A program made the translations under genes and the position numbers. Shown here piece by piece: positions 37,762-64,000 of a DNA stretch of 64,000 nucleotides (position 1 is its first letter; every line of letters starts with the position of its first letter). The stretch comes from Psilocybe cubensis. Lineage: Eukaryota. Under the pieces are notes generated by a model. That model was not told the origin of the DNA. It searched no databases and worked only from the letters and a program-made list of their open reading frames with translations. Location of the stretch: assembly GCA_017499595.2 (NCBI GenBank), contig CM039005.1, positions 3,038,001-3,102,000 on the forward strand, given 5' to 3'.

Positions 37762-37766
37762 AAAAA

Positions 37767-39277: not shown

Positions 39278-40612
39278 ATGGCATTTGTGCAGACATTTAT
39301 CAAGCATGTACTTCGGTACTTTGATCCCGACGATGGATTGAACACAAAAACTCAAAATATTGATGACTATATTCGAGGTATCTCTCTTAATCTATCCGTG
39401 TTTCTATACTATACTTAAAAATCTACTCAGAAACTGTATCTCAGCACATTCAACAATCGCTTGGAACACCAAGGCCAAAAGACTTTCAAGGTTATTTGCT
39501 TCAAAGTTTAAGCGCCCAAATCTAATAGTGAGCATCTCAAAACAGGTCTCCCAAAGGACAAACAGATTCTATACGTGAAAAATGAACAAGGAGACTTTGT
39601 ACCAGTCTCTTCTATAGCGGATGCATCTTCTAGGAAACTTGAGACTTCTGTGGCGACTTCAAAAGAATCTGGCAACAATTCTACATCGACTGTTGACTGG
39701 GATGGCTGGCCTAATGGGAATTTTGAACGTGATTTCACTTTCTCTGAGATTAAAAAGACCTCAAATCTGCGATGGCACTGGGCGTCTATTACTAGTGGTG
39801 ACCGCAAAGGTGATATAAACGCAGCATGCTGGGAAGACGGAAAACTATCTCATCGATTCTGCTTGGGAGTTATCAAGTGTGATAACCCTACATGTTTGCT
39901 TGTTGTTCGCCCCCACACCCGCCTAGAAATACGCAATAAGCAGAAATTACAGCAATGTGATTGTGGTGGGTCTCGTATCTACTTTCCATGCGACGCCAGT
40001 GCCACTCTTTATAAATGGGCCGGAGGTGTTCACTATGTGAATCAAGGTCATCATACCCATATTCGGCCAACCCAGCTCAAGCACGCCTTTCCTCATGAAA
40101 TGGAGAAGTTTAAATCGATTATAAACGCGAATCCAAAGGTGCGACCCACTCAGCTAATTGCTGGTGTTCCTACCCTCAAAGGCCCAGGTGAATCGGTTGC
40201 TGATATTTCGAGCGTGTTTCTTAATGCACATCGAGTCGGTAAAGAACGCAACAAGATCACTAAATCAAATCTGAAGGGTGCCGATGCCGTTGTTGCTGCC
40301 TTTGAGCAATTTTCGAAGGACAATCCTGATCTTGTTCTACATTCAACTCTGGCCCCTACTGTTTTCTCGATTCAATCGCCATTCATGCGTTCCCAGCTTG
40401 TCAAAAACATAGAAATCGATGGACCTATAAATGGACTTGTCAACGATGCTGCACATGGCTTTTGGAAGGAACGCACCTCTGTTCTCATTGTATCATCAAC
40501 ATACTGCGAGGTTCTAAACTGCTGGGTCCCTGGAATTATGTCATATAGCAGCGGAGTATCTGGCGACCATTTTACATATCACTTTTATGCTTTGCTTCGC
40601 AGCCAGCCTTAG
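39278..40612 (+). pseudogene. GCM-domain DNA transposase-like gene, 3'-truncated
   Basis: ORF 39575-40612 has the GCM-type Zn motif CLGVIKC-x4-C..VRP..KQ..CDC..FPC..QGHHTHIRP, then VNDAAHGFW (candidate first catalytic Asp). It stops abruptly at HFYALLRSQP*, where the KDZ terminal region begins. Confidence 0.65.
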
Positions 40613-40776
40613 CTGCTACTTGAAACCTTCATACCCTGGCAGTTGCCAGGTGTATGGTATATATCTACGGAGGCAACTGCCAGGTGCCACATTTGATGTG
40701 TTCACCTGTGCGGCACGCGGTTAGCCAGGGGTATGAACAATACGACCAAACAAAACGTCAACAACAGCGAGCGGGG

Positions 40777-41460
40777 CCCCCGCGGGCGCGAAAAATGCGT
40801 TGCTCATCGTCCGGGCGGCCGATTTTGGCGGGAAAAAATTCGTCGGGACCGCCTCGACGAGCAGATTGCGTCGGCGTCGTTTGCGCGCGGGTACGGGCAC
40901 TGGGCGGGATGGATTGGGCGGGTCGACTCTGGATGACGCCCAGCATTAATTCTGCGCGCCTTCCGTTTTAGGTACAGGGGTTGTCACGGATGTATTAGTT
41001 ACACGCGTGCAAATTCATGGGCCGATCCAGGCCAATCCTTCATTGATGGGAATGATGATCAAAATGATCATCATGCCGCGTCGCGCGCGTCACGCACCGA
41101 TACCGTTGGACGCAGCCTGCACGCCCCCGCGCCTTCAAAACCAGGGGTTGCTCGTCGTCTGGTCGGCGAATTTTGGCGGGACAAAATGCGTCGGGATCGC
41201 CGCGACGAGCAGATTACGATGCCGTCGTTTGCGCCTTGGTACGGGTAGGGGGCGGGATGGATTGGGCGGGTCGACTCTGGATGACGTTTGCATTACTTGT
41301 GCGCACCTTCCGGATTAAATCGACGGATCATAGACGGATGCACTATAATTAGATACACCCGTGGCGCACACGGGTCCGTTCATCCGATCAACACTGATGG
41401 GAATGATGCGTGAAAATACTCGCCACGCAGCAGCCCCTAGCAGCCCCCGCGCGCTTCTGC
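40777..41460. repeat. GC/CpG-rich subterminal direct repeats, ~348-bp period (2 copies plus start of a third)
   Basis: Identical 37-mer GGGCGGGATGGATTGGGCGGGTCGACTCTGGATGACG at 40902 and 41250; TGATGGGAATGATG at ~41044 and ~41396. Confidence 0.85.
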
Positions 41461-41739
41461 ATCTGCCCCGCCGCCTTCAGTATGGACGGTTGCTTGCTTT
41501 CTGGAGTGTATTTCTTCAGCCTGTGGAAGCGCTCAGTGGCAGATTTGAATGTCATGCATGTGGGTGGAACGCCTTATCACGGGGCCTATTCAATGTTGAC
41601 CATGCCAGCCAGACCGTCGTAGACTAGCTTCGGCACCGGATAGATTGATTCCCGGTACACCTTAGAAAAAAACGCCAATATATGAGGGATTGGTATCAGT
41701 TAGGGTATCAGTAGATTTTGTTTAAAATCAAATCAAACA

Positions 41740-44700
41740 TTAATCTAATTCTTCTATTTCATCTAACTCAGTATTGTCTAGATAAACAACTTCCCCATTC
41801 ATTGATACCTTCACAGCTTCATCCTCCTCCTCATCTCCCACAACTGTCACATCATCCACAATCGTGTCGTCATCGCCGTCATCATCGCCATCCTCCTCGT
41901 CAACGATAGGGCCACGTGAATTGGCGGTAGTGCCATCGGAAGTTGAAGTTCCTTCAGCAGCGGTAGGAACCTGCAAACTTGTCCTCCATAACGTGCTGAA
42001 GTGGTCAGCAAGAGAGTCTTGGAGGGCAGCCTGTGACAATGCATACGCTGAGATGGCCTCTAGTACATCTTTCTTCCCGGTAGAAATTGCCTTTATTCGC
42101 TGCCTCTACCAATTTGCTTTCCATCGGAGATAAACAAGAACTCGCCTCATCTCCTCCTTAAGCAAAAGGACTTCTTCTCTGGCACGTTGCATTCTGGCTC
42201 GACTCTTGGACCACTCTACCCGGAGAATGTCAGCGCGATCTTCGTCTGGGGCCGCTGAAGTGCCGTCGGCTCCGATCATTTCAGCTGCGCTGGAAGATGT
42301 GGGCGTTACAACCGTCCAAATCCAAGAAAGTGTTCGTCGAGTCTGTCCGCTACCTTGATGGAGTGTCCGCTCTTCGTTGAACAAGAAAAGATCTCCCTCC
42401 TCTGTGGGCGCATTTTCTCCTGCTGCGACCTGCTCGTCTTCTAGGGTTCCTCGTCGACCTACTCGAGGGCGTAGACGATCGGGGTCTTGATAGCTACGGA
42501 TATCCTTGTCGTCAAGTTTACGAAACGTCTTCTCCCAGTCTCCGGGGCCAGCCAGAGCTAGATGTGCTTCCCGCCCCTTCCGATATTTGTCGGCAGCAAA
42601 TCTTGCGCGCTCGTGAACGCGATCAATCACTGCCGTTGATCGAGTGCCTCCGCGTTGACCCCGGATATTCTTGTTCTTGAAGGCAATCATTCGCGCCTTG
42701 ACCTTCAAAATTTGACGTATGGCGTTCAGAGAATCAGTAAGTTGGGCTTCTCTCAGTTGTCGTTCAATATTAGGCAAGTTGTGCGCACTAATTTCACTGC
42801 GATGCGGCTCAGGGATTGTAGATGGCAGCCAGAGTTGTAAATCTTCAGCATGTGTGGACGCCTCATGGATGGGGTGGTCGGCTTTATACTGGATAATTCC
42901 AGGCATATAAATTGGCAGGAGCTGCTCCCATGCCCGTATACGCGTTGTGAGAGCATTTCGCTGCTCTGTCAGGTTCCCGGCTTGTCGAATAGTGGAATCC
43001 TCCCCTGTATTTTTTGCCAGGCGTCGAAGCCGATGTCTATTTCATGAATTCAGTTTGATTACAAGAACAATTGCGCCAAAAGACTTACTGAGTTTCTTCA
43101 AGATCTAAGCCCATACTGACAAACACAGATGGGGTGGTTCTATGTGGCATTGTTCCACCAGATGCCAGAAAGGCAGCTTCAGAATCTGCCAATAGTTTCT
43201 TGACATGGGCCTCTGTGATGCCTATGCCCAACCATGTTAAGTTAACTACTATACAAATGTGTAAAAACATACTGGTGTCTTTCATCTCATAGGGGTTTTT
43301 CTTCTTCTTCGGAAACACATCTGATTCCCACTCGGCGCACATCTTCTCCCAGCGCTCTATCAGATTAGGATTTGCCTTTTTTATCGATTCCGACAGACCC
43401 TCGTGCCCCTCCGTCTGGATATTGCGCTGGGCAATCGCGTCCCTGTACCTACGGAGCAATGTAGTGCCCATAGATGTGTATTTTTGCCAGTTCCAGAACC
43501 CGAAGTGGTCGTCGAGCGTGTCCTGGCGTGAACCCGGGCCTTGAGTTTTCGTAGCGTTTGCAAGAGAATTGTGGGGCGCCCATACTCGCTCCGGGCACTC
43601 GCCATCGGTTTGCCCAACCCCAGGAATGAAGTTTAGTGAGTACATTTGATGGTTGGTCTGGTTGTGCATCGGTTCATGCAGCTTTGGAATCACTGGAATG
43701 AGTGTGATGTTGGCGGGGGGTTGAATGTGTTGGGGCCAATCAGATTGCATCCGCCGTAGAAGGTTGATGAACCATTGACAAGCGATGTCATAGCTCACCA
43801 ACACAAGGCGAACGGCAACCAGGCGGAGAAACCACGCAAATATGTAGTCCATATTTGCATATCTTTATGAAAAAATTAACATTGAGATGCTGGAATGTGT
43901 AGATGCTCGCACCGTTCTCCCTTGTGCATATTTCCGACAGTCATGATCATTTCTGATCTCCCGCATACTGTCATACCAAGGCCCGTGTATCGAAGTCCAA
44001 CAGAGAACTTCGTATTGGCTTTCGCCAGCGCCTGAAACCCCACGCATGTGCTTATCTACAGAATCTTTAGATCAAGGCGCAGTGAAATTTGCAAACAATA
44101 CGTACATCTTTATCGGTGGCGCGACTGGCCACATACTGTTCATATCTATGCCTAGGCAGCATGTATGCCATTCCAATTCCTAGGCCCGGATCCTGAGAAT
44201 AGTTTGACACGAGTTGATTTTTAAGTCGAAAGTTTGCATCCATGCAGACAATAAGCATGTACAAAAACCTGTCTAATTATCAGCAACATTATAAGATCAT
44301 TCACAGAACAAACAAACTTTCTATCATCCGGCGCGCTTTCCCAATCGTCGGGAAGATTGATTTCGGGATGAGGACATGATGGACACTTGATGGCGAGTTC
44401 TCCATCAGCAGTGCCTGCTGCACCTGAAGGGTCATGCCCTCTACCTGCCCACTTCAGCATCTGCAGATGTCTCCACTGCAGCACCATTTGAAAGAGAGCA
44501 CGATAGCGAGATGGCGGAGTATTCATGCCGGTATTTGTGGTCATTTTCTCGAGGCACCTGTAAAAGTCATACGTAGATGCCTTTGTTGTCAAGGCAAGCT
44601 TGTGAAGAAGCGTTAGCAACTCGAAGCTTGCGCATGTCTTGATGGTGATCTGGGATGCAGGGTATAACCCTCGCCGTAGAAGTTGAAGGTGGTGCGGAAT

Positions 44701-45524
44701 GGCTCGCGAACAGTTGCAATACTGAACGTCGACAGAGTGTATGCCGTTGGTGTGAAGTATCAGCATTTTCGAGTGACTTGGGACGGGATTTTCGCAATAG
44801 CCGCTCGCGTGATTCAACTGCACCTTGGCTCCTAAAGAGCGAAGGGACACTGAGACAAAGTACAACTCATTCCACCCCTTGAGATTGGGTTAGAATTGCG
44901 CCAGATCCAAACATTTTAACATACCTCAATTCGATGAAAAGGGTGCTGCTTATGCCGCCGCACGCAACAGCTTTGACACACCAAGTCCGGTGTGAAACAT
45001 TCCTGGCAGCGATACTCTGCAGGTCTAGGGGGATGAGCGGATCTAATCTTGCAATCCGGGCACTCTGTAGTATGCCAAAAATCCCCGCGACCAGCCCATC
45101 GAAGGATTTCTTCCAGGTAGCACTGACGATGCAGCTCCTTCCATACTTTGTGAGGCCGTTTCTAATATTGGGTCAATAAAAACAAAAAAAAGAACCACGC
45201 CAATCTCACCGATACGGCACTCCTTGTCCTTTTGGGTAGTGGGTCCTCCGTCACAATATCTGCCTCAACCTCTGTATCATGAAGCTCGCCCGTAGGATTC
45301 AGTGCAAATTCGTCGTCATCTGGCGGCGACCAGTCCGTTATTTGGTCCCAGGACCTAGCCGCGCGGACAGGAGACACGTCCACCCTTCGTGTTGCGCGTT
45401 CAGCACCGCCTACATTTCGAACAGCGACCTCGCTGGCCTGTATCAGTTCGAATCCATCGGCCGAAGGAATGATGTCGTGGTAGTAAGACCCCACGCGACG
45501 GCGCTTATTTTTAACAGACGCCAT
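41740..45524 (-). CDS. KDZ transposase with CxC2 cysteine cluster, multi-exon; one premature stop (TAG at 42106-42108)
   Basis: CxC2: CQECF..CQSCCVRRHKQHPFHRIE/W..QLNH..HTNGIH..YCNC..QLLRRGLYPAS; KDZ core: DANFRLK, GERYANMDY, SYDIACQW, IPKLH, GQTDGECPERVW, DTLDDH, RVEWSKSRAR..EEMRR. LRWKANW*RQR continues in frame into AYA..QA..LA..F..W. Confidence 0.92.
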
Positions 45525-45740
45525 GAATGATTGTGGAGGGTCCCTGTAGTGTTCAAAAGGTTAATTTGGACCCTGGTCAATGGTCTGTTGATTAGATTCC
45601 CGTGATCACAGCGTGGGAACTTTTTGGACTTGGTAAACACTCATCGTCCTGACTCTGACCCATTTATCTCGCTTATTCGCTTAGATCAAACTGAGGTGCG
45701 CCCCTATCGTCCGTTTCAACCCCTTTTTCTTTGGCTGCAA

Positions 45741-45857
45741 AGACACAGGAACGTTCAGGCATGGACATACACTGTGTCTCGTATGCCCTACTTGTGTATT
45801 CTTGCGTGCAGAGACACAGGAACGTTCAGGCATGGACATACACTGTGCCTCGTATGC
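45741..45857. promoter_or_regulatory. Tandem 46-bp repeat in the divergent transposase/TET promoter
   Basis: AGACACAGGAACGTTCAGGCATGGACATACACTGTG(T/C)CTCGTATGC at 45741-45786 and 45812-45857 (1 mismatch); regulatory role is inferred. Confidence 0.6.
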
Positions 45858-45936
45858 TTGATATCTTTACAGCTTAATATGATTTTTTATTTTCATTCCT
45901 CATACTAACTACACCTCCTCTACTCACTAGGTTATT

Positions 45937-47380
45937 ATGGTGGCTCTTCAGGCGCTGTTTGACCTGCCTACTCGCCTTTTAAACGCGTTTATTTTGCAAG
46001 AGGCCTCACAGGATGATAATTTGGACGATGAAGAAGTTGAGTTACCTACACCAGCCCTCAAAACGTCGAAGGCGACAGATTACAACGACATTGTCGTGGA
46101 CATCACTGAAGAACAACCTGGTGACGACCATCGCAAAGCAAGGCGCAACCTAGCAGCCAAAAACAGGCGTAAAAAGAGACGTGCGGAGGCTAAACAAGGA
46201 CCTCTCGCGTATCATAATCCACGAGAGCATCCGCGGCACAAATCGGGCTCGAAGGCGCAATACGTCGATTTTAACACAGGCGACATTCCAGTGGTTCAAA
46301 CTGGATACACCGCTTTGGATCGGGGCCTTGGAAGCCGTCGGGTGTACAAGCTTGCTGAGTTGGTAGGGGAAAAGTCGAAGTTCAAATTCACGTTGGTTAA
46401 GGCTCAATCGTACGCCCACTTACTTTTATCTTTGGAACTTGAACTGAAAAACATGAACCTCAGGGCGTCTATTCCAATTATTGACTCAGAAAATCACATC
46501 ATCGGCGTCATCGCAAACCACCCGAAGGATGAATCCTGGGCCGAGCTTCAAAAACAAGCGGCAGATGCTCTAGAAAGGAACAGATCTGGCTGCCATGTTC
46601 CTCCCAAAGAACGTACACACCGACGAGGAAAGTTCACGACACTGCGCGCTGGGGTATCTCACGGAGGGGGCCAACGCGCACCTGGTAATCTGAAGAATCA
46701 GAAAGGAAATGCGAAGATACTTGAAGAACTCAATAGTCTCGAGCCTTTCAAACGATTTGCGGGCTTTGCTTCATGTAAGTAACTCAGTATATTTGATTAT
46801 GCGTGTTTATTTTCTGATACGGATCCCAGCTGTTATGCATACATGGTTCAAGGATCTGTACAATTATTACGCCTCGACGCTCGACAAGCTTCATACCGAG
46901 TACCCACTTCTTCAGCGAATTTTTCCTCAGAGTATATTCAGCGCCGTATCTTACAACCTCGGACCATGTACCGCATGCTTTCCTCATAAGGACTTTGCCA
47001 ACCTCGCCTTTGGAATGTGCGCGATCACCGCTTTAGGAGACTTTGACCACACCAAGGGCGGTCATTTGATACTCTGGGAGCTCAAACTGGTCATAGAGTT
47101 CCCGGCTGGGTGTACCATCTTGATTCCGTCGGCCTTGCTTACCCATTCCAACGTACCCGTCTCAAAACATGAACGTCGATATTCCTTTGCACAATATACT
47201 GCTGGCGGGATTTTCAGATGGGTGGAGAACGGCTTCAAATCGCGAGAAGAATATCTGTCAACATTGTCGAAGGCCCAACTTGAAGAGGATGTTGAGAAGA
47301 ATACGAACAGATGGAAATTTGGGCTGTCATTACTGTCGGATGTACTGAAAAACAATCATATGAACGAGGGAGTACTGTAA
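45937..47380 (+). CDS. TET/JBP-family 2OG-Fe(II) dioxygenase (fungal CcTet-like), 3 exons
   Basis: RRGKF..GVSHGGGQ..PGN; HKD (HxD); GMCAITALGDFDHTKGGHLILWELKLVIEFPAG; THSN (distal His); RRYSFAQYTAGGIFRW (2OG-binding Arg). Introns ~46410-46463 and ~46775-46829; no lesions seen. Confidence 0.92.
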
Positions 47381-47948
47381 TAGGACTCTTAACATACAAT
47401 ATGAATGTCGTATAAATGTTACATACATGTATTATTGTTGCATAGGATCATTTGTACTCGCAGCGTTAGTTATATGTCTTGATGGATCCTCTTTGGTGAT
47501 CTCGGAGACGCAAATTTGAGAGTATTTTCAACTTTCTGAGCTCAATTTTCAACCAGGAGTGATAAAATTTGCATCATCTTGATCGCATTTTCATAACAAA
47601 CAAATAAGTAATGCTTTTAAGTGGAGCCACTTGATATGTGCAAAGGTGATCTCTGTGGACCATTTTACAGAATCTCTGGAAAACGACATCGACCTTTCGG
47701 GCTCAAAGCACACCTTTGAATCTGATTTTTTTTTTTTCTTTCGAAAATCGACACATTACTATTTTACATTATTTGTGGTCATCTTAAATAGCGTGGTTGA
47801 TCATCAGAATAAGTAGCTGTTGAATATTTTAGAATGCTGGACTCTCATCTCTCGCGCATAAAGGCAAATATAAAGACGCCGATGAGCTCTATTTTAGGAT
47901 ATCGGTAGAAATAAGCAACTTGACCACTAATTGTACAGAAATAGTGCC

Positions 47949-48508
47949 ATGGCAAGACGTGCTGCCTCCAAAGCTTTCAAACATATCAATCGTCCCTTGT
48001 ATTTAAGGCGTCGACAAGCATACTATGAGGCGTAAGTATTTCAATACTTATTCAACGCGAGTACGACTGCATGTTGATGTACGATACTTCAGATATCGAG
48101 ATGTCGAAAAGCGCAAGTCAGCAGAACGATCGCGTAGGTGAGTAGAACTAGTGCTAAATTTACAAACTTAGAAATTGACATTGTTCTAGGCGTAAAAATT
48201 TGCCTGAAGATGAGCTCGCCGCTGCTCGACAGAAGCATAGAGAAGCACAGGCTCGTTACAGGGCCAAAAACCGCACACTTCTCAATGCAAAAGCAAAAAT
48301 ATATTACAGGTATTTTATTTCTTAACAAGACTGTCCTACAAATACTAATCTATGCAACAGACGACGTAAACTTAAAGCTGAAAAGGCGCAAAGGGGGGAG
48401 GAGAGTGAAGAAGAGCTCGACGACGAAGCAGAATGGATCCGATTGAGTGCCATGGCCGAAGAGATTTCAGAGGAGGAATGGCTCCGCAGGCACGGAAGGC
48501 CATTATGA
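47949..48508 (+). CDS. Small basic alpha-helical protein (131 aa, 4 exons), not in the ORF track
   Basis: Exons 47949-48031, 48093-48137, 48190-48309 and 48361-48508 with canonical GT-AG give MARRAASK..RQKHREAQARYRAKNRTLLNAKAKIYYRRRKLK..EESEEELDDEAEW..RPL*. Confidence 0.7.
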
Positions 48509-48833
48509 CGTGGCTCCGCAGGTACAGATGGCCATTTGGACGCCTGTTGAGAGCTTTCCGAGCTTATTGAATGCTATTTCTTGTTACCACGCGGTATAGA
48601 TGTGTAAATACAGTAATTATGCCCTTAGACCAGCTCAGACCACATGTTTTTCTGTTGTTGTTCACTCAATTTGGCAGGGTAAACTTCTAGAAAGTTATGG
48701 TGCATGTTGCCTGTGATTAATCTTATCATGCAATTGGAATTTTGTTGCAACCCAAGCGCAAAAAACAGAACCACAAGTCAATTTCAACCACAGGGCGGTA
48801 CAGAACAACACATGTAATCTACATATTTTGTAC

Positions 48834-50645: not shown

Positions 50646-50795
50646 AGTGGGCCAGAAGTCCAAGCTTGGATCTTTTTAATGTTAAAATAATGTTCCAAAA
50701 ATTTTGCAATGTGGAAACTCGCGTATTTTCAAATTTAAAGCATGTGGTTGGGTGTCTACGACCCAGGCCGTGTCCACAAGGACGCCTTTGTGCGT

Positions 50796-52424: not shown

Positions 52425-52482
52425 TCCGTCCCAAACTTGAGAAATCAACCGTCCCCGGTTGCGGAAGGAAGGGGGGGATAGA

Positions 52483-55400
52483 TTAGAAATCGTCCATATC
52501 GTCGCTCCATGTGTCTTCATCTTCCTCACTCTCGTGTCCAAGTTCTCTGATCATCCGGTCTAGCTGAGGTCGAGGAATGACTGAACCGTCTCGTGGAAAA
52601 TAGCGAAGAAGTCGGAAAGCAGCTACGCCTTGAGCCAGTTGCGTACCATTAAGTTCTCTAAGCACATATGATCCTCCTCGTGTCTGTCGTACAACTTCGT
52701 AAGGTCCAAGGTATCGTGGCTTGTGCTTGCGATTCATCTCCTTCTCGACTTGACTGTTCCTAACGAGGACTAGATCACCAAACTTGAAGCTTTCTTGTCG
52801 AAGACGTCGAGCAAATCGTCGTTCAAAAGTAGCTTTGGATTGAAGTCGTGATTGTTTCAGAACGTCGGCTATGTTGGCTAAGTCTTCATCTCGTTCCATG
52901 AGTTGTCGAACACGGAGAGCTAGGAGATCTTCGGAACTCATTCCTTGTCGGAATCCATCAACTAGAAATGTGGCTTCAAGGAGATCAAATGGAAGAACAG
53001 GATGAACACCATGCATGACGTAGAAAGGGGATGTGGCCAGTCTAGAGGTCGGTCGCCGCAAGCTTTGAGAATGGATTCACGGAAGTCAATGTGACCACGT
53101 TCAATAGATCCATTGGCTTTAGAGTTGTAAGGAGAAATGCGAACTTGAGGAATGCCGTACTTTTCCATCAAAAGACTGAAAGCGCCAGAGACTTCTACTC
53201 CATTGTCCGTGCGTACAATAGCAATAGCACCATATCGGCATATGACTTCTTCCCAAAAGAAAGTGGCCAGCTCTTCGGAACGTAAAGACTTGAGGGCACG
53301 TCCTTCAGGTGCACGTGATAAGTCGTCTCGGGCTAGGACTACGTATCGGAAGCGTCCAGACTTGGGCATGTACATGACGTCGACATTGATGATAGTGAAG
53401 ATAGTTGGGGTAGCTGTGATAGTGATAGGAACTTCGCTTTTCTTGGTGGATCTGATCTGACATTCATGGCAAGTAGCGAGATGATGCTTGATATCCTGAA
53501 AAAGAAATGGCCAGAAAAACCGAATGCGAATAACTCCAAACACACCGTATACTCCTCGATGTCCGAGTTCTTCATGAGCTTGAGTAAGAATGAGACGTCG
53601 CTTGTCTGGATCTAGAATAACCAAGAGTGGAGGTCTTCCTTGTCGTCGTCGATAGAGTTGATCATCTTTGAGATAGTACTGAGTAGCGCGAGCAAGGAAT
53701 CGTCGTCGGGACTGCAAATTGGGAAAAGGGGGTATAGTTTGGTCTGTAAGAAATTGAAGAATTTGTCGAAGTGTCCGTTCTTGAGAAGAAGAAGAAGCAA
53801 TAAAAGAAGGAAGCGAGATAGAGTCATACGATGGCATAGAAGAGGGAGTAAAAAGAAAAGTAGGGAAAAATTTGACCGTATTAAGAAGAGCAATATCGTC
53901 GAGCCAGTCATCGTCTTCTTGAGGTTCTTCTAACTCTTCAGAAGTTGGTTGTCGCCTTGAAAGTCCATCAGGTCCACGATGATTACCGGCCTTTACATGG
54001 ATGAGCTTGAAGTCAAAGAGAAGAATGCCTTGTATCCATCGATTCATACTAGCACTAGGCTGCAAGTCAGGCTGATTGAGCATGCCTTTGATGTACTTGG
54101 CGTCGACTTCAACGTAGAGGTTCTTGACTCCAATAAGATAGAGGCGGAATTCTCGAAGAGCACGGAAAAGACCATATAACTCAAGCTTGGGCTGACTGTA
54201 TCGTGCTTCTCGTGGATTAAGTGAGATAGAACCATAGCGGACAGGTCGTCGGATGCCTTCTTTGTCAAGCTGATAGAGAATAATACCAATAGCAATGTGA
54301 GAAGTGTCCACGGCAAGAATAACTGGGCGATCGGATGAATAGTCAATAGAAGTGAGAACAGGAGGATTGGAAATGATTTCTTTGAGAGTTTGGAAAGAGT
54401 CTTCTCGTTGTTGAGTCCAGACAAAGGGTTCGTCCTTACGATAGAGTTCTGTGAGTGGTCGGACAAGGGCTGAGTAATTTCTGATCCAAACACGCATTGT
54501 TCCGCATAGACCTAGAAAGGATCGGATGTCGTGAACAGACTTTGGTCGTGGCCAATCAGTGACTTTCTGTATCTTACTCTGATCGGGTAGTCGTCCATCC
54601 GGAGTGCATAACTGTCCAAGGATAAGAACTTTAGGCTGAGCGAGCTGAGTCTTTGGTCCAGAAAATGTAGCACCAGCACATCCCATGCGGTGCATAACTC
54701 GATGAACATCTTGAGCGTGTTCCCAGACAAATCGTCGTATTCCTGGATTTTCTGGAAGTGTTTCTGGATTGCCGTCCTCGTCTAAGTACTGTGTTGGAGG
54801 GACTTTGATAGGAACATCGTCGATAAAGACATTGGCTACGTGAGGGATCTCGTCACGAAGGATGAAAGTTGTACAGGCTTGAAATTCCGCTACTGCATTC
54901 GTATATCCCATAGGCATTGAAGTAAGTCGAAGAGGTCCAATAGGCGACTGGAATGTGGTAAGATCTCGGCTCATAGGATGGATTTTGCGTGCGTCATATC
55001 CCCAATATAAGTCAAAGACCGTGTAAATAGAATGACCAGCAAAGGGAACCACAAAGTCGTCAAGAACTGGAGGAACTCCTGCGTCGCGATAGGAAATAGA
55101 GTTAAGAATCTGCAGATCATGAACTAGACGGATAGCACCAGATGTCTTCTTCTTGACCCAGAAAATTGGAGAGCGATACGGAGCTTGGCTTGGTTCGTAT
55201 ACTCCAGCGTCTATCTTTTCACGTAAGAGACTGATAACTTGATCCTTGATGCCGGGTGGAATAGGAATATTTCGGACTACCCAGGGCTCGTGATCCTCAA
55301 CAGGAAAGATGTATGGAGAGAAGTATTCTTCAGAAAATGTTCCACGTTCGGACTGATGAAAAGCGAGTGAGCGTTCATTGAGTTTAAGAATATGAAGGAA

Positions 55401-56495
55401 AAGCTTTTCTTCTTCCGGCCATAGGAATTTGTTGGCGTTAATGTTCATTGATTGTATGCGTTCAAGAGTGAGTCTGGTTGTTGGCGTAAAGGCAGGGGGA
55501 TGGAGTGGGAGAGGTGGGAGAGATAATAAGGGATCAACAGGAATTCGTCGTATAACTTTGGCCGATTCTGGAGTAACCCGATTTATAGGTCTAACTTTCC
55601 GATCGACTCGTTTATAGGCTGTATTGGCAGAAGAGGGGGAAAGAATAGGTGATATGAATTGATTCATGGAGGCTCGGAAGGTTGATAGTGTCGATCCTGA
55701 CGCGGCAGTGAATACAAAACCAATTGTAGGATAGCTTGACGACCTTGCCGAATTAGTTCGGTTGACGGTGGGTTTAGCAGTAATATCTGAATTGAGTGAC
55801 CATGATCTCGCATAAATGCTTTGATCTATCCGAAATTTCTGTAGGTCTTGACCCATCAGAGGTAATGGAGTGGTCGTCCTTCTTATCTTGTCCGTAAGCT
55901 TGATTTTTCGCTCTTTGTGGATAAGATGAAGCCCTTTCCGATTCTGTAGGAGTTCGAGGTGTATTGGAGGCGTGATGGTGGTGTATATTGGAGATAGAGA
56001 TTCCGTATAGCATTCCTTTGGGAGGTTGCGCGTATTTCTCCAAGAACTCTGCAATAGGTGACCTGAGGATTTGTTTGCGGACTGAAGTGGTAAAGCGGGG
56101 GTGGAACAAATAAATAAAAGGGAGGAATAAATAAAGGTTAGTTTAACGACTTTTCGGTCGACGTACATACAAATGGATAAAGTGGAAAGAAAATGAAAAT
56201 AAAAGGTAAAGGAAAAGGTTGTATGGCGTGGAGTTGCCATTGAGAGTGTGAATGTGAGGAAAAGGCGCATAAAAGAAAAGTGGAGGCGTTCAAGAACTCG
56301 TTGCACAAATGAAAAATCTACATAAGTGTCCGTGAAATGGAAAAGAGAAACGCAAAATGTGGAAATAAAATGGGAGGTGGAATAAAGGCATAACGATGAG
56401 GAAGAAGAAACACCAGCAACAGCAAAGGTGACAAAGAAAAATTGAGGGGATCGGAGAACAAAGAGAGGGCGTTGAGGAAGCAAGCTGATGTCCAT
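52483..56495 (-). CDS. pol: Pol: reverse transcriptase, RNase H, integrase (deletion/frameshift near 53035)
   Basis: RT VHDLQILN, FDLYWGY, MPMGYTNA, FIDD; RNase H LAVDTS, YSQPKLE, VEVDAK; IN HHCC (AHEELGH..CHEC), INVD, RTDNG, NGSIERGH; C-terminal GPY motif in a shifted frame (52483-53061); no chromodomain seen. Confidence 0.93.
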
Positions 56496-56510
56496 GCACC
56501 GTCCAGATAG

Positions 56511-58943
56511 TCAGTACAATGTGTTGGCGTCCAAGGGATGCTCTTCCGTGTTGTCAATACAAAAGGGACTTTCTTCTCCATACTGATAGTACCATTCGTT
56601 TCCATCGTCCATATTTGAAGCTCGCGATTCGTGCATTGTGCTGGTTATTGGAAAAGGTAAAAGGGAAGAATTGTGGTCGACCTCTTTGCCATTTTGAGCG
56701 ATTCGTAGCTCTTCTTCATCCTCGTTTAATGGCTCCTTCGGACTGTCGTGGGCTACTCGCAGAGGATGTACCAAAGCTTTTGGGCCTCGATGATGCTCGT
56801 CTACATTTGCGGTGACCGTCGATGATACACGTGTTTCTTGGTGAATCATAATCGAAAGAGGCGTCTCTGGAAGAGCAGAATTTCGGGAATGAGGTTGGGG
56901 AATAGAAGAAGCGTTTTGAGAGCGAATGGATTGGGGAATAAAATGAGTCCAGGATGCTGAGTGACGTTGGCCCATTGGATAGGCACTGACTGAAGCAGAG
57001 TGGTTAGATTGAGACGAGATACCAGTGCGACTGAAGTGTAGAATAGTTGGAGTCGTCGTCAAGTTTATATGGCTGTCTCTCTGCGGATAAACATAATGGA
57101 CAAAGGCCGTTCCTGTTCGGTCAGAAACAACACAAGTAGGAGAAGAATAAGTGGCGTCGTATAGAATCCAGTCTTCAAAGCGCAAGTGGGGGTTGAGCAT
57201 TCCCATAGCCGTAAGGTGAGTATTGTCAGAAGAGAATTGAATAGCTTCTACTTCGGGTGAGCTCAATTGTTCCATTTCTGGATCGTCGTCAGCTGGTTCT
57301 TCTTCATGTGGGTTGTTATTGTCTGAAGTGTGGGATTTGATGGACGGATTGACAGATGGTGATGGTGGCTGTTCTATTTGTGGGGCCTCATGTGTGGAAT
57401 CGTAAGGTGGTGTGGAAATATGACCATAATGGGCTGTCGCATTGAATTGAGAAGTTCCCGAGTCATCTTGATACATTGAGTCATAATCGGAAGCGTAGAG
57501 ACCGTGAGAGGAGTCCTGAGTCGAGTCATGTTTGCAGTTGGAGTCAGAGAAAGAGGGTGCATCTTGTGAAGTGGATAAGTCCTCATTTGGGTTAGCAGAT
57601 TCGTCCCGATTCAGAGATTGTTGCCTAGTAAGGATAGATAACTCGATCATAGAAGGGGTAGGTGATGGATAGCGAAGGTCGTCCAATAATTCACCGGATT
57701 CTAGATCTTCTTCAATTTCACCTTCTTCGGCATCCGGATTAGCTAAGGAGAGGTCGTTGTGTGCTAACATTGTGTGGGGGGTCTTGTCGTAAATGGTATC
57801 CGTGAAGTAACGCCGGTCGTGCTGAGTATCAGGTGTCACAAGGAATTTCTGCTCACGTGTAGGATCTTTGACGTCATAGAAGGCAATGAAGGTCCCTTCG
57901 GGTCGTTCTAGAATGTCCACATAGTTGTCACGGGTCCATGGACGTCCCAAGAGTATATCAAACTGGACTTTGTCGGATACATAGCAATGAGCACGCGTCC
58001 TGACTGTACCAATATCAAGTTGAACATTTCCAACGAATCCAAGCATGTGGGATTTGCCGCCATGAATATCGACCATAACAATAGTATTCCGGCTGTCCAT
58101 CGGCAACTTGACAATCTTCTTCCAAGCCTGTTCGCTTAGAATGTTCTGCGTAGATCCACTGTCAATCAAGGCATTGAGTTCGTGACCATTACACATTAAT
58201 GTGATTCGAAGAAGGGGCTCGTGAGCGCGAAGGGATTCGACTGAATTGGTCTCGTGCATGTATTGAACAGGTACGTCCTTTTCGGCACTGCGAATGATGT
58301 CTAGAACTTCCTTATCGGAAAGCTTTAAGTTGCCGTTTGCCAATGAAGCTTTGAATTCGTCGACAGTAAGGGTCTTGCCTTTGATGCTGTTGATAAGAAG
58401 GGTCCTAAGGTCCTTTGAAACTCCAAGTAGCTCGCCGAACGTCGCATTAACGGGTTGATTAAGGCATCGTCTGAGAATGGCCATAGTGTCGACAGTTTGG
58501 GATATGTCAGAGACACGTTTCTGAGGTGCTGCACGTGGCTTGGTAACTGATTTGCCTCGTTCTAGACTAGGAGTGACATCTTCCATGATTTGATCATCAT
58601 CGGCCGGATCAAAAACCTCGTGTCGTTGGGCAGTCTCGGGATGTTCCGTTGGATTTGCCCTAATCGGGACATTGGGTTGAGCTTGTTTGACAGGAATTGA
58701 TGGATTCATTTCGGCAGAAGGTTGATTAATTGACGGGATTGGGACAGGTTGAATGGAAGTGGAGCTAGGCACATTGTTCGGCAATCCAGAGTTAGCCGGA
58801 CGTTTAAGAATAGATGGGATCTGAGAAGAATCCTTAGCTTTACTCATTTCCGCTCGCTTCCCTTTCAGATACGCGGGTTCCGGAGGTACCACAGCGTCCA
58901 TGACCTGTTTGCGTGCAGCACGTGTTCGCTTTTCAGTTGGGAT
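56511..58943 (-). CDS. Retrotransposon aspartic protease region with long acidic/low-complexity tail
   Basis: ALIDSGSTQN and FDILLGRPW motifs; same frame as gag and pol. Confidence 0.88.
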   Translation of the reverse strand: MPTEKRTRAARKQVMDAVVPPEPAYLKGKRAEMSKAKDSSQIPSILKRPANSGLPNNVPSSTSIQPVPIPSINQPSAEMNPSIPVKQAQPNVPIRANPTEHPETAQRHEVFDPADDDQIMEDVTPSLERGKSVTKPRAAPQKRVSDISQTVDTMAILRRCLNQPVNATFGELLGVSKDLRTLLINSIKGKTLTVDEFKASLANGNLKLSDKEVLDIIRSAEKDVPVQYMHETNSVESLRAHEPLLRITLMCNGHELNALIDSGSTQNILSEQAWKKIVKLPMDSRNTIVMVDIHGGKSHMLGFVGNVQLDIGTVRTRAHCYVSDKVQFDILLGRPWTRDNYVDILERPEGTFIAFYDVKDPTREQKFLVTPDTQHDRRYFTDTIYDKTPHTMLAHNDLSLANPDAEEGEIEEDLESGELLDDLRYPSPTPSMIELSILTRQQSLNRDESANPNEDLSTSQDAPSFSDSNCKHDSTQDSSHGLYASDYDSMYQDDSGTSQFNATAHYGHISTPPYDSTHEAPQIEQPPSPSVNPSIKSHTSDNNNPHEEEPADDDPEMEQLSSPEVEAIQFSSDNTHLTAMGMLNPHLRFEDWILYDATYSSPTCVVSDRTGTAFVHYVYPQRDSHINLTTTPTILHFSRTGISSQSNHSASVSAYPMGQRHSASWTHFIPQSIRSQNASSIPQPHSRNSALPETPLSIMIHQETRVSSTVTANVDEHHRGPKALVHPLRVAHDSPKEPLNEDEEELRIAQNGKEVDHNSSLLPFPITSTMHESRASNMDDGNEWYYQYGEESPFCIDNTEEHPLDANTLY

Positions 58944-60392
58944 TCAATTACCAGGACCTGCCAGCGTAAACTCAAACTCGTCTTCTCCATCCCAGGTTCC
59001 AATGTCGTCCTCTTCTTCTTCTGCAACCATGGCTCTGTAGTTCTTGAACATCTGACCATAATATGCTTCGGATATGGCTATGCTTGTGGTAGCAACTTGA
59101 GGAGGAGGAGGAGGAGGCTGTTGTTGACGAAGGACTGCTTGTGCGATTGACTCTCCATTCTGGCGAATAATGCGGGATCCATCAGGGAAGACAACTCGAT
59201 TGCTACTGTCTCTGGAGATGAGCTTGCGGTTTGTAAGATCAATGAGCGTCGGGCAGTTGTTGATTCCATGGCCTTGTTGGTGGCAACCATAGCAGATGAT
59301 CTCGGATGCGGACTGACGTGGTGCTCGTGGTGCTGGAGGTGCTGACTGACTTGCGATTGGGACTGGCTGAGCTGGCTGTGCACTTGGATTCATAATGGCC
59401 GGAGCAATGAGCATGTTAGCAAGAGCGGGTTCCAACTTGATGGCGCGAAGATAATAAATGGCGTACGAAGAATCATGGATGGTGAGCTTCGACATCTGCT
59501 TGATCAAGTTCTCCACTTTGTCGTCCTTGTGCGCTTGCTTCTCTTCCTTGTCTAGATCCTGAAAAATGCGCTTGGTCTCTTCCGGGGGATTGTATGGACG
59601 TTCACGGGCATCGCGTGTCTCAATGTTAGGAAACATCTCCTGTAAGTACTTCTTGATCTCGTCAAAGACTGATGAGCGCTCTGGATACGAATCCTTTGGA
59701 GGAATAAGAGACGTGAAGGGGCGTGCAGAAGGATTGTCAAAGATTCCAACGTCAAAGCGGTCTCGTTTAAAGATGATTTCAACTGCCTTGGTGACGTCTT
59801 CAATGGAAAAAGGTGAGGAGAGATCGATATGAGGATTAAAGACCATGATCTTGCTTTCGAGCGCAGGTCGGAGGGATTCATTGATTCCTAGCCAGAAGTA
59901 TTGATTGTATTCCGTCTTGGATATCTTGTTGTTGTTGAGAAGCCAACCAGCGATGTGAATGTATTGCTTCTGATACTCGCGGAAGTCGTCGAGAGAGCGC
60001 ATAGAAAGATTGGAGTGTTGGAAAGCGTAAGCACGAAGAGTACTCAACGTGAACTTCTGCGTTGTCCTAGCATGATCAAAGATCTTGAGCATATCAGTCT
60101 TGAGTCGTTCCCATTGCTTGGCATGGTGGCTGGGTAAACCTTCAATGATTTCTCTGCTCTCTTGGTTGCAGCATTGAACCATGTATCGTACTTTGTCATC
60201 GTCGAGAGTGACATTGTACTGATCAAAAATGCGGTCGCAGTGATCCAAGAAGTTCTTGACGTCAATGTAAGATCCAGTGAATTTTGGAGCAGCACTAGAT
60301 TTAGGAACAGGCATATCGACAGGAGTACGTTGGATGATGGTAGTAGCCATAGTGGGAGTAGAGGATGGAAGCGGATTGCCAGAATCAGTCAT
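58944..60392 (-). CDS. gag: Gag with CCHC zinc knuckle
   Basis: APKFTG..VKNFL capsid-like start; CYGCHQQGHGINNC knuckle. Confidence 0.9.
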   Translation of the reverse strand: MTDSGNPLPSSTPTMATTIIQRTPVDMPVPKSSAAPKFTGSYIDVKNFLDHCDRIFDQYNVTLDDDKVRYMVQCCNQESREIIEGLPSHHAKQWERLKTDMLKIFDHARTTQKFTLSTLRAYAFQHSNLSMRSLDDFREYQKQYIHIAGWLLNNNKISKTEYNQYFWLGINESLRPALESKIMVFNPHIDLSSPFSIEDVTKAVEIIFKRDRFDVGIFDNPSARPFTSLIPPKDSYPERSSVFDEIKKYLQEMFPNIETRDARERPYNPPEETKRIFQDLDKEEKQAHKDDKVENLIKQMSKLTIHDSSYAIYYLRAIKLEPALANMLIAPAIMNPSAQPAQPVPIASQSAPPAPRAPRQSASEIICYGCHQQGHGINNCPTLIDLTNRKLISRDSSNRVVFPDGSRIIRQNGESIAQAVLRQQQPPPPPPQVATTSIAISEAYYGQMFKNYRAMVAEEEEDDIGTWDGEDEFEFTLAGPGN

Positions 60393-60567
60393 AGCGTAAA
60401 CCAGTTACAGAGTCAGAAAGTGTCGCCTAGAATTGTTGCCTAGAGTTGCCTAGAGAATAGACCAGCGAAGCGAAGTAACCTGTAAAGAAAAAGAGTCGAA
60501 ATGGATGGAATGGAAGTGATAAAGTGGTAGATTGCTGTGTTCCTAATACAAAATCCTAATTAACCCT

Positions 60568-60585
60568 CCCTCGCGGTGGGCTCCA
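60568..60585 (-). other. Primer-binding site, probably tRNA-Lys
   Basis: TGGAGCCCACCGCGAGGG begins 2 nt inside the 5' LTR end; complement ends GGUGGGCUCCA, like eukaryotic tRNA-Lys 3' ends (tRNA identity inferred). Confidence 0.7.
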
Positions 60586-60587
60586 GA

Positions 60588-62216
60588 TGAAGATCGAAGT
60601 TTGTGATTGGTTATAAACTATATGTAATCCAACAAACACAAACCCCAGGGAAAGAGTGGTCCAGACTGGATAGGACGAAACCTTCTCCTAAGTTTCTTAA
60701 GGGAGGACGCTGCCTAGGATTTAAGTAGATTAGGATGGTGTGGATTGTGAAGGGTAATGAAAGCGAAATAGTAAGAAGAGGATAACCGGGTCGTCTGGGT
60801 ACAATAGTAAATAAGCCTTCCGAAAATGGGATGGAACCGTGGAATTGGATGGCGGGTGTATATGGAAAGCGTGAAGAAGATGCGTAGATTGCGTATGAGA
60901 AATCAATAAATGTGAATCTTAGAGGGGTTGTCTGAAGTGAGTGGGGAACGTTCCGAGGGGAGATAAGAAGATGACTAGGAGTCGGAATGTCGTTAACGGG
61001 CTGAATCTTGAAGAATGGTGAAAGTGTCTTTAAATTGACAATCTTTCTGAAGCTTGGAATGAAGCTATACGTCGCAGGAGTATTGACTGAATCGAGGATG
61101 AAAGACTAAGTCTGTCTCGAATGAAATCGCTCCAGATGAGTTGACGGAGGGAAAGGATGTCTTGAATACACTCCTAACGGCGATGGTTGGAAGGTGTAGA
61201 AAGAGTAGGAGCGGTGACGGATTGAATGGAGGAGAGGAAGTAGGGAAGTACTGGAGGTCTGGATAGAAGTTGGATATTCAATGCTGAGAAGAAGAGGCGT
61301 TGGATGAGGAGGATGACTGGTCTCGGATGAAATCCTCTCTTAATGGAAAGCGAGATGACTTCGGATGAATGGAAGTAAACTTGGTCTCGACGGAGGGTGG
61401 AACTGATGACTGAATTGGACTTGGGTTTGGGCTTGGCTTGAACTTGAGCTTGGAATTGAAATGAATCGATGTGGATTGACTTGAAATTGACTTGACTTAG
61501 ATGAAAATTGACTTGCTTTGAAGAAAGTGGGGACTGGGTGTAACTTTCCTATCGTTTCGTGTAATTCTACTACAGCTTTTATACTAAAAGCTACGTGAAC
61601 GAAATACCAATCTAAGCTACTGAAAACCGAGTCATATACTGTACAAAGTGTCAAGAATGAGGCTATGCAAGTGTAACAATAAGCAAGAACAATAAGACAT
61701 GTCAATATCGACACGACGACAGATAAGAAATGAATAGGATGAGTAAGAAAGAAGTGTATGACGAAGGTGAATGGTAATACAGATTAGATAAAAGAAGCAA
61801 GGATGAGTCAGAAAGCATAGAAGATTGGTAAGACAAAGACAATAAAAGCGCAACAGACAATAGAAAAGATATAAATAAACACAAAAGGATGAGTAAGACA
61901 AACCAAAAATAAGTTGGAATGAGTAATCCGCAGCCTGACGCTGAGTAAGACCATTGAATTGATAAAAATAGAGTTGACAGTCCGGCTGTGCAAGGCAGTG
62001 TAGAAAGCTATGCAGTTTGATGGTTGACTGATCCGTCGCATAGCCTTGATGATCTGACGAAGTGACATGATCCGGAATAACGTGGCTTCCATGTGACAAG
62101 TGTTGATAAGATAAGATGTGTGGATGACTTATGGAAAGAATGACTGCTTGGGTTGAGGGCGTCGTGTGTAGATCCAAAATGAACATCTCATCTCCAATCA
62201 GGATTGGGGTATGATA
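60588..62216 (-). repeat. 5' LTR (1629 bp)
   Basis: Element-strand termini TATCATACCCC...GATCTTCA; followed by the PBS. Confidence 0.95.
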
Positions 62217-62526
62217 GCATGCCTTGGCTGTATTGGCAAATTATTTGATTTGAGCGGTAGATATGGAGGATAACTCTGCAAATCTATCAAAAACATACTC
62301 ATTTCAATAGATCCTCGGATTTATTTAGAAAAAAGGAGTGCTAAAGTACATATTTCTGCCATGTTTGTATCAAAGTAAGGTCATTCTATGCATTGATGTG
62401 TAGAAAAAGTCAAGGTCTCTCAAAATTTGTTCATTTTTAATCGTTGTGCTCGGGGAATTGTTCAATTTTTTCGCTGCTGTGCTTTCTAAAAAACCTCTCT
62501 TATATTCAGCTAGTGTCGTCGATCCA

Positions 62527-63587
62527 ATGCCAAACCCTGGAATATTCAAAGGTGCTCGCAAAGAATTTTTGCTTACACAAAAGGGCATATACGCAGATGC
62601 TGTCAAGAACGGGCATGTCGCTGAGACGCTGATGACTATCCAACGTCGGTATTTCAAGCGATTCCCCGTCGAAATGCCTCTCGACCAAGAACCAACTTCA
62701 GAGGCTCTGGCGGCAGTAAATGATGACGCCCCCGATGAAGACATTGTGGAACCGGACCGGGACTTGTTATCCGAAGACGAGTATAATGCGCAGATGGCTG
62801 CTTTCAAGTCTAGGCAGACTGTGCTTGTTGTTCGAAAAGGAGTAAGATTCATTCAAAACAATAAATTCATGTCTGTTGATAACATTTTAATGAAGCAATT
62901 GAGACGATGGTTTGCCTACCAGTATGCCCGTGAAAATGGTTCCAAGATGAACGCCAACATTACTCTGCTCGCCGGTCTTCTTCAACGAATTTATAATCCG
63001 GGTCAGGAATCACAGCGTCCTCGACTCAAAGCTCCAGTTAATGTGTGGAGAAAGTCTCAGCGTGAGGCAATTGATAAGGCCTATGAGGACGAAGTTGCGC
63101 GTGCTAAAGAGCAAGGAGAGACCAGGGCAAAGGCAAACAAGGCAGCGGATCGAGATAGGATTGCCAGATCCATGTTTCAAGCCCTTCCGATTGGCGAGCA
63201 GGCCTACTGGAAGAAAGTGGCTCAAGAAGAACACGATGCTGCGATGGCAAAGTTCAAAGCCGAATCATCAGGCGCTCCCCCTTCAACTGATCCAAGAGAG
63301 CGTCAGAGGTATACATTATTGTAAAATCTTGAACATATTTGCTAATTTGTAAACGTAGATCGATTCAAAGTTTGCCTCAGATTCTTCAGCCTATCTTGGA
63401 TGCGATATGTGCCGCAACGGGATGGAAAGCTACGCTCATCGCTGGGGGTCCAGAACCTGCGAGAGGAGGTCATTTGAGTGTGATTAGGTAGGCAGTTCTT
63501 CTTTGTTTGCTTAGTTGTAAACCTTTACTCACGAGTCACTTCAATGTATGTGCCTAGTTTACATTCAGGGGTGACGTCGGGGGACGT
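62527..63587 (+). pseudogene. KDZ-associated HMG-box-like protein gene, interrupted by an LTR
   Basis: MPNPGIFKGARKEFL..IQRRYFKRFP..LRRWFAY..VNVWRK..DRIARSMFQALPIGEQAYWKKVAQEEH..AMAKF (HMG-like helix 3), then LQPILD..TGW..TLIAGGPEP; cut at 63588. Confidence 0.7.
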
Positions 63588-64000
63588 TATCATACCCCAA
63601 TCCTGATTGGAGATGAGATGTTCATTTTGGATCTACACACGACGCCCTCAACCCAAGCAGTCATTCTTTCCATAAGTCATCCACACATCTTATCTTATCA
63701 ACACTTGTCACATGGAAGCCAAGTTATTCCGGATCATGTCACTTCGTCAGATCATCAAGGCTATGCGACGGATCAGTCAACCATCAAACTGCATAGCTTT
63801 CTACACTGCCTTGCACAGCCGGACTGTCAACTCTATTTTTATCAATTCAATGGTCTTACTCAGCGTCAGGCTGCGGATTACTCATTCCAACTTATTTTTG
63901 GTTTGTCTTACTCATCCTTTTGTGTTTATTTATATCTTTTCTATTGTCTGTTGCGCTTTTATTGTCTTTGTCTTACCAATCTTCTATGCTTTCTGACTCA
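63588..64000 (+). mobile_element. Start of a second LTR of the same Ty3/gypsy family, opposite orientation
   Basis: TATCATACCCCAATCC... is the reverse complement of the end of 60588-62216; preceded by ACGT; runs off the window. Confidence 0.93.

Follow-up and report, generated by a model that had tools for sequence, protein, structure and literature searches.

A stretch of 64,000 nucleotides of Psilocybe cubensis DNA (contig CM039005.1, positions 3,038,001 to 3,102,000; hereafter the window) carries, at 40604-64000, a CxC2-KDZ element with a TET/JBP dioxygenase gene as cargo. The coordinate 64000 marks where the window stops and is not an end of the element, whose right end lies farther on. 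Five genes were located in the element: those for the KDZ transposase and the TET/JBP enzyme, one for a small basic protein (g3), one for a Ser/Pro-rich protein (g4), and the 5' part of an HMG-like gene. The last three are referred to below as helper genes, and a Ty3/gypsy retrotransposon is nested between g4 and the HMG-like gene. The features of the element itself are as follows.

40604: left boundary of the block that is present or absent between runs, regarded as the terminus of the element from contig breaks in sequencing runs X11 and X8; starts with CA
40635-40684: terminal hairpin of two perfect 13-nt inverted arms and a 24-nt loop, in a stretch that is multi-copy in reads
40799-40965 and 41147-41312: two subterminal direct repeats, each about 167 bp long, 84-86 % identical and G+C-rich, found by repeat analysis and blastn
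41740-45524, minus strand: CxC2-KDZ DDE transposase gene, recognised by Pfam, with its ATG at 45524 and its natural stop at 41740
45525-45936: divergent promoter region of 412 bp between the transposase ATG and the TET start
45937-47380, plus strand: TET/JBP dioxygenase gene (JR316_0009429), with introns at 46410-46463 and 46775-46829 and all catalytic residues present
47949-48508, plus strand: g3, encoding a basic protein of 131 aa, with exons 47949-48031, 48093-48137, 48190-48309 and 48361-48508
50645-48834, minus strand: g4 (JR316_0009431), encoding a Ser/Pro-rich protein of 566 aa in three exons, a length equal to that of the annotated protein
62527-63587, plus strand: 5' part of the HMG-like gene (JR316_0009433), with exons 62527-62841, 62896-63309 and 63360-63488 and a short piece reaching to a long terminal repeat (LTR)

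All five genes lie where an earlier reading of the sequence (the original prediction) had placed them, and its coordinates were confirmed. The divergent transposase and TET start codons, given there as about 410 bp apart, are separated by 412 bp, and those of g4 and the HMG-like gene, described as divergent across about 460 bp before the Ty3 insertion, are 460 bp apart once Ty3 is removed (150 + 310 bp). The proposed start of the element at 40604 gained independent support from a contig of run X11 that matches the window only up to 40603.

Identification of the five genes

The transposase gene consists of six reading-frame pieces between 45560 and 41740 on the minus strand, the first five introns being canonical GT-AG introns of 47-50 nt. 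Pfam matched PF18803 (CxC2) over the full length of the profile (E=3.8e-36) and PF18758 (KDZ) at profile positions 98-217 (E=1.8e-32), the latter in the open reading frame (ORF) 43085-43864; the exons ahead of this ORF encode the segment beginning DANF. The transposase is probably of the Kyakuja type. The promoter region that it shares with the TET gene contains two 56-nt direct repeats (45731-45786 and 45802-45857) that are 93 % identical and each include a short inverted repeat; these may be candidate binding sites.

The TET reading frame is 100 % identical to JR316_0009429 (P0001), a hypothetical protein of P. cubensis. Residues H332, D334, H385 and R396, representing the HxD...H iron ligands and the 2-oxoglutarate-binding arginine of the double-stranded beta-helix, were invariant across 27 aligned sequences. 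The AlphaFold model (pLDDT 82) was used for a Foldseek search, in which the ten best rows were all chains of CcTet (E=2.3e-13 to 2.1e-12), followed by NgTet1, TET2 and CMD1, with 44 matches at E≤0.001. The Pfam family PF12851 (Tet_JBP) was matched by nine of the 27 aligned TET relatives (best E=3.3e-08), and no match was obtained when the PDB was searched by sequence with a piece of the protein and with the TET profile. The gene is intact as far as its sequence can show. The public model of JR316_0009429 (462 aa) keeps the 54-nt in-frame first intron, and the likely protein is 444 aa long; the closest TET paralogue lacks exactly the 18 residues encoded by this intron, where the AlphaFold model is disordered.

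For g3, the translations of three exons gave a single Pfam row at E up to 10, an unrelated one at 0.27. Exon 3 found nothing in a PDB sequence search and no family in an Atlas look-up, in which only two of the ten best named matches agreed on one. An assignment of g3 as a bZIP protein was rejected, there being no bZIP profile match and no heptad leucines after the basic stretch.

Residues ~120-187 of g4 resemble the N-terminal domain of RNase H1 (Cauli_VI). This stretch spans the first intron, which is why single ORFs gave nothing for the domain. The three best Atlas clusters for residues 105-190 all carry PF01693 (score 0.86, 183 shared features), and structure rows over residues 120-187 gave TM values of 0.49-0.62 to the same domain, while a PDB sequence search with g4 gave no match. 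Exon 1 of g4 also contains a perfect 32-nt palindrome at 50584-50615, and contigs of runs X6 and X8 end beside it, at 50613.

The HMG-like gene was at one point considered single-copy on the basis of 15 matches at 145-464 aa. This was dropped, as full-length relatives measure 600-870 aa and P. cubensis has several paralogues. Judged by the length of these relatives, no more than the first third of the gene lies in the window. Exhaustive structural alignment placed residues 142-234 of the model on HMG boxes, with their L-shaped three-helix fold. The best structural match was Abf2p (Z 8.2, root-mean-square deviation 2.4, 75 residues aligned), and HMG boxes accounted for 27 of the 28 structural rows with Z≥5, a striking consistency; a Foldseek search with the same model returned nothing at E up to 0.001. 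The family comprises 1073 representative clusters at E≤0.001, and nine of ten full-length relatives have no Pfam family of any kind. Pfam recognised none of the TET, HMG-like and RNase H1-N-like parts in the proteins of the window, and the three names derive from folds, from relatives and from a language-model look-up. These results lend at least weak backing to each domain guess of the original prediction (HMG-like, RNase H1-N-like and basic helical).

Left end and insertion polymorphism

Four sequencing runs were mapped on window positions 37000-56999. In run X11 the depth of mapped reads was zero across 41669-50339, and the absent region spans g3 and g4 in addition to the KDZ and TET genes. 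A contig of 3918 nt from this run matches the window at 39027-40603, after which its next 2341 nt are unlike the window, and a contig from run X8 stops at the same base, between 40603 and 40604. With the block missing from X11 and a contig of that run broken off at this position, 40604 is the real left end of the element. The first bases of the element from 40604 are CA, and the 7 bp of left flank adjoining it are 40597-40603.

In the raw reads of run X12 the element had a depth of ~25-43 per mate orientation, equal to that of the single-copy flank. At 40634, by contrast, the depth was 336, compared with ~45-50 in the flank, and the first ~150 bp of the element, including the hairpin, were several-fold deeper in reads. 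Loose read ends at 40620 and 40627 lead into other genomic contexts. A multi-copy terminal stretch with varied flanks is as expected of a transposon terminus common to other copies or derivatives. A shorter terminal variant that skips 40652-41248 was present in three runs. No second copy of the element was found inside the window by blastn, and this copy is single-copy at ≥90 % identity by read mapping. Without the nested Ty3 elements, the unit measures at least about 12 kb, with its right end past the window.

The left end falls within an ORF of 366 aa (39512-40612, plus strand), 9 nt before its stop codon, and the insertion probably interrupted this ORF. Its product is rich in Cys and His towards the N-terminus and transposase-like towards the C-terminus, and had no Pfam match at E up to 10; it may be a Mutator-like transposase with a WRKY/GCM1-type zinc finger. 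With an insertion polymorphism and paralogous copies on other contigs, the element is mobile. The central claim of the original prediction, a mobile KDZ element with an intact TET/JBP gene, is upheld by this presence/absence polymorphism together with the invariant catalytic residues and the CcTet-like fold.

Recurrence of the gene set and state of this copy

Metagenome contigs fetched by means of HMG-like relatives gave 13 loci, out of at least 591 pattern matches. Most contigs bearing relatives were short, as is typical of repeats. Locus L005 (9.9 kb) contains KDZ (minus), TET (plus), g3 (plus), g4 (minus) and HMG-like (plus) genes in the order and orientation of the window, and L010 (11 kb) has KDZ, g3, g4 and the HMG-like gene in order. 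In L007, g3, g4 and the HMG-like gene come after a TET remnant; L001 has TET and then g4 and the HMG-like gene. These four loci keep order and orientation at only 30-60 % protein identity. Co-occurrence in other copies had been set beforehand as the test that could go against the original prediction, and the helper genes do recur in such copies in the same order and orientation, so that this test does not refute it.

Relatives of g3 were detected in L005, L007 and L010 at the same place and on the same strand, and they have a basic motif and an exon pattern in common with it. When composition statistics were turned off, the E values of these matches were 6e-4, 6e-4 and 0.007, and a match in the expected interval and strand was obtained in three of the four testable loci, compared with none of 200 shuffled queries. 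The g3 copy of L005 contains a stop codon.

The profile for the g4 domain was built from seven peptides, with seeds chosen by a motif search limited to the expected strand and region; the seed loci therefore match by construction. Nine loci have 1.3 kb or more of sequence ahead of the HMG-like gene, and in eight of them the domain lies there on the minus strand; the other four of the 13 are too short for this test. Among loci that had not supplied seeds, the profile matched L013 at 8.2e-14 and L001 at 1.1e-8, and in the window it otherwise gave nothing below E 0.49. Matches to g4 were also obtained by tblastn in L001 (8e-4) and L006 (0.003); in the corresponding control, two of 60 shuffled queries matched at E≤0.05. 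The support for co-occurrence of g4 that is independent of the seeding is that of the profile matches in L001 and L013 and the tblastn matches in L001 and L006. Weaker second profile matches (E 0.001-0.015, minus strand) were seen in L007 (1860-2054), L012 (493-819), L013 (1246-1539) and L010 (6440-6697). They lie just downstream of the main match, and some g4 relatives thus seem to have two tandem Cauli_VI-like domains.

The TET profile was compared with six-frame pieces of the 13 loci. TET is present in L001, where it is cut by the contig end. In L005 it lacks profile positions ~339-379, including HxD, and in L007 it is reduced to a remnant of 20 residues (E=0.0019). L010 had no TET-profile match at E up to 1, and its KDZ gene and g3 are only ~1 kb apart. 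The helper genes are still there where TET is absent or in decay, which makes them more likely a core of the element than additions to TET. TET itself has the look of a passenger that can be lost, not of the centre of the kit. Two other features of L010 were recorded. Arms of 122 nt at 1-122 and 10694-10815, 100 % complementary, were considered as terminal repeats and are more likely an assembly artefact, and 30-nt tandem repeats occur at 9260-9799, in the Ser/Pro-rich part of its HMG-like gene.

In named genomes, adjacency was judged by positional locus tags. The closest TET paralogue of P. cubensis, JR316_0010502 (83 % identity), shares a 3.08-Mb contig with JR316_0010500, which at 64 % identity was the only g4 paralogue found in a protein search saturated by low-complexity candidates (8000 scored, 2 significant). 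The TET gene JR316_0001628 and the HMG-like gene JR316_0001625 share a 4.33-Mb contig and are three tags apart, which is the spacing of the window when Ty3 is discounted. In Gymnopilus dilepis, CVT26_006141 (TET) and CVT26_006140 (HMG-like) are found together on one 13-kb contig. A TET relative (P0012) and an HMG-like relative (P0150) of Flammula alnicola are each encoded on a contig of 807,652 bp, possibly the same one, in a genome whose protein numbers are not positional.

The copy in the window has been damaged, in part by insertions of a retrotransposon.

50796-62216, minus strand: nested Ty3/gypsy LTR retrotransposon of 11.4 kb, with LTRs at 50796-52424 and 60588-62216
63588-64000, plus strand: third copy of the Ty3 LTR, inverted, seen as a 413-nt inverted repeat that is 100 % complementary and runs off the window

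The two LTRs of the nested Ty3 are 1629 bp long and differ at four internal positions, and the insert is young. Its domains occur in the order Asp protease, RT_RNaseH, Integrase_H2C2 and rve. The flanks read ATGC and ACGC, so that the target duplication is not clean. Read depth over Ty3 was ~10 times that of single-copy sequence, which suggests about ten copies of its internal part and more of the LTR. The polyprotein (52962-60404, minus strand) is made up of three contiguous ORFs in one frame, with TGA codons between them at 58946-58944 and 56513-56511. RVT_1 is not among its Pfam matches, and the LTRs start with TA, not TG. The insertion splits the 460-bp divergent promoter of g4 and the HMG-like gene, while the third LTR, at 63588, cuts an exon of the HMG-like gene, whose homologues read on past this position. 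In the transposase gene there is an in-frame TAG at 42108-42106, where the homologues in L005 and L010 read Trp. It sits within a W-K-A-x-W-W motif kept in both loci, and 121 further codons follow before the natural stop. A 114-nt 'intron' proposed by greedy splice-finding would remove this stop; it was rejected, as it deletes residues conserved in L005 and L010. The TET gene, g3 and g4 of this copy remain open.

Interpretation and relation to known elements

It is likely that the window contains a copy of a Kyakuja-type KDZ cut-and-paste transposon, belonging to a lineage with five genes in a fixed layout and inserted in a transposase-like ORF. The layout amounts to two divergent promoter pairs, KDZ (minus) with TET (plus) and g4 (minus) with HMG-like (plus), and g3 (plus) between them. 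The DDE transposase would excise and insert the whole block. TET is predicted to oxidise 5-methylcytosine on or near the element and so to counter silencing by methylation. The HMG-like protein may bend DNA, whether to give the transposase architectural help in transpososome assembly or to open chromatin, and g3 may be a DNA binder, with the subterminal repeats as possible sites. Double-stranded RNA or RNA-DNA hybrids could be bound by the Cauli_VI-like domain of g4. To call this set an 'anti-silencing kit' is to read putative functions from sequence. Of the kit in the original prediction, the co-occurring gene set is supported, and the damage to this copy and the loss or degradation of TET in three of four related loci speak against the prediction as worded.

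A number of results weigh against this interpretation. Some concern the names of the genes. The window's own TET had no Pfam match at E up to 0.1, PF01693 was not found by Pfam in g4 (P0136, P0137) at E up to 10, and the Atlas score of 0.86 and the structure values for g4 lie below the tool's naming bar and count as leads only. With E allowed up to 1, none of eight HMG-like relatives matched Pfam HMG_box, and Z values of 6-8 are middling for a helical domain by the tool's own note. With default composition statistics g3 had no match at E up to 0.05. Others concern the extent of the unit. Neither a target-site duplication nor the right end was seen within the window. The mapped stretch ended at 56999, inside Ty3 and short of the HMG-like gene, and the X11 allele is a putative empty site. 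This copy is itself decaying, with the TAG in its transposase gene, Ty3 in the g4/HMG-like promoter and an LTR in the HMG-like gene. The remainder concern the constancy of the set. L001 lacks g3, L008 lacks the g4 domain in spite of 1.3 kb of upstream sequence, and in three of the four testable loci (L001, L005, L007 and L010) TET is degraded, a remnant or absent, whereas g4 and the HMG-like gene are retained. The P. cubensis TET paralogues JR316_0005316, JR316_0011710, JR316_0012692 and JR316_0012061 had no helper among the neighbours that were found. The HMG-like family is much wider than its TET-linked subset, because only two of 24 named members are tag-adjacent to a TET among the best 120 of 284 TET matches.

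Other explanations were weighed against the same evidence. It is possible, though rather unlikely, that the helpers serve transposition itself, with the HMG-like protein and g3 as architectural or end-binding cofactors and TET as an optional passenger of the lineage. HMG-box proteins assist other transposases, for example RAG and Sleeping Beauty. The fate of TET also fits this explanation, since L010 keeps KDZ, g3, g4 and the HMG-like gene with no match to the TET profile, the TET of L005 is without its HxD segment, that of L007 is a remnant, and repeated passive transfer of TET between transposon lineages is described in the main text of PMC12730594. What it leaves without an obvious role is the Cauli_VI-like domain of g4, which has none in DNA cut-and-paste, and the HMG-like family occurs also away from any listed TET. 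A transposon limited to KDZ and TET, with g3, g4 and the HMG-like gene as neighbouring host genes or as a separate adjoining element, is highly improbable. The recurrence of the same order and orientation in L005, L010, L007 and L001 at such low protein identity, the two further P. cubensis copies on other contigs and the inclusion of g3 and g4 in the region absent from X11 all argue against it, even though the right end was not found within the window, the main text of PMC12730594 names no further Kyakuja proteins, and the HMG-like family is large and mostly without a demonstrated link to TET.

The least probable explanation, to which we give almost no weight, is that the block is a duplicated, non-mobile cluster of a domesticated transposase and its partners, in which the polymorphism reflects a deletion. 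Such a cluster would agree with a copy that is single-copy at ≥90 % identity and has a truncated transposase and no visible target-site duplication, but not with a sharp break at a CA terminus that interrupts an ORF 9 nt before its stop, nor with a multi-copy terminal stretch with varied flanks and copies on several contigs and many metagenome contigs. Within the preferred reading of a mobile five-gene Kyakuja lineage, a more elaborate and doubtful proposal is that the genes form a layered counter-defence set. In this set TET would be an exchangeable eraser of 5-methylcytosine, g4 would sequester double-stranded RNA or hybrids and so blunt RNA-guided silencing, and the HMG-like protein and the small basic DNA binder would keep the two divergent promoters and the ends accessible. 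If it were true, the large HMG-like family of Agaricomycetes (>1000 clusters at 50 % identity, unannotated) would be largely transposon-borne.

A divergent KDZ-TET/JBP linkage in basidiomycetes, with lineage-specific expansion of both families, was reportedly described by Iyer et al. in 2014. TET-carrying (TET+) Kyakuja elements of Agaricomycetes, for example Kyakuja-1_LB and Kyakuja-2_LB, are described in the main text of Kojima 2025 (PMC12730594) as having 5'-CA..TG-3' termini, 7-bp duplications and no terminal inverted repeats. The element in P. cubensis resembles them, as there described, in combining a KDZ transposase with TET/JBP in one element of an Agaricales host, in its CA start (here at 40604, at the left end only) and in the proposed role of escape from methylation silencing. 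It differs in having three further conserved genes, whereas that main text mentions no such Kyakuja genes ('HMG' and 'other protein' each occur 0 times). The same text proposes passive exchange of TET genes between transposon lineages, with which the view of TET as a losable passenger agrees. The association of KDZ with TET and the existence of TET+ Kyakuja elements are therefore known, and what appears to be new here is the conservation of three helper genes in order with KDZ and TET. Among the papers searched none joined Kyakuja, or KDZ and TET, with HMG, and the older PNAS paper (Iyer 2014) or the supplementary tables of PMC12730594 may list some of these neighbours already.

Among other systems, KDZ1 of Cryptococcus neoformans is presented in PMC11343200 as a 'gigantic' KDZ transposon of ~11 kb with a transposase and two genes of unknown function. 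It is likewise a large mobile KDZ element with accessory genes; unlike the present element it has, in that text, a CxC1 cluster, is drawn with terminal inverted repeats and is described without TET. CcTet of Coprinopsis cinerea (PDB 7vpn, 7w5p, 8jkk) is the best structural match to the window TET, in which the iron and 2-oxoglutarate ligands are conserved. The two are only 14-17 % identical in structural alignments, with no sequence-level match in the PDB, and the activity of the window TET, on 5mC or 6mA, is predicted. Plant VANDAL elements, according to the main text of PMC12730594, encode anti-silencing proteins and share with this element the concept of a DNA transposon with its own counter-silencing factor, although the proteins are unrelated and several putative factors are present here.

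Among mobile elements that bring along an eraser of DNA methylation, the fungal transposons with TET stand as the clearest example, and the accounts cited here present them as a transposase plus TET. If the three additional genes are conserved parts of the unit, then a DNA-bending protein, a putative binder of double-stranded RNA or hybrids and a small basic protein would offer handles on silencing avoidance or transposition assembly, and >1000 mushroom protein clusters that lack annotation would gain a likely origin. The insertion is polymorphic among P. cubensis strains and provides a natural with/without comparison for methylation and expression.

Outside the element, a Pfam search of upstream ORFs gave no identification. 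Ordinary-looking genes are present on the plus strand at 13130-14836, 111-662 and 10212-12235 (an F-box-like protein at 9e-06, an AAA/Torsin-like fragment and a weak aspartyl-protease match), and the window is rich in G+C at 10-12 kb and at 26-30 kb. A minisatellite at 38480-38694 consists of units of ~21 nt, with seven overlapping 48-nt copies, and its region is several-fold over-represented and polymorphic in reads.

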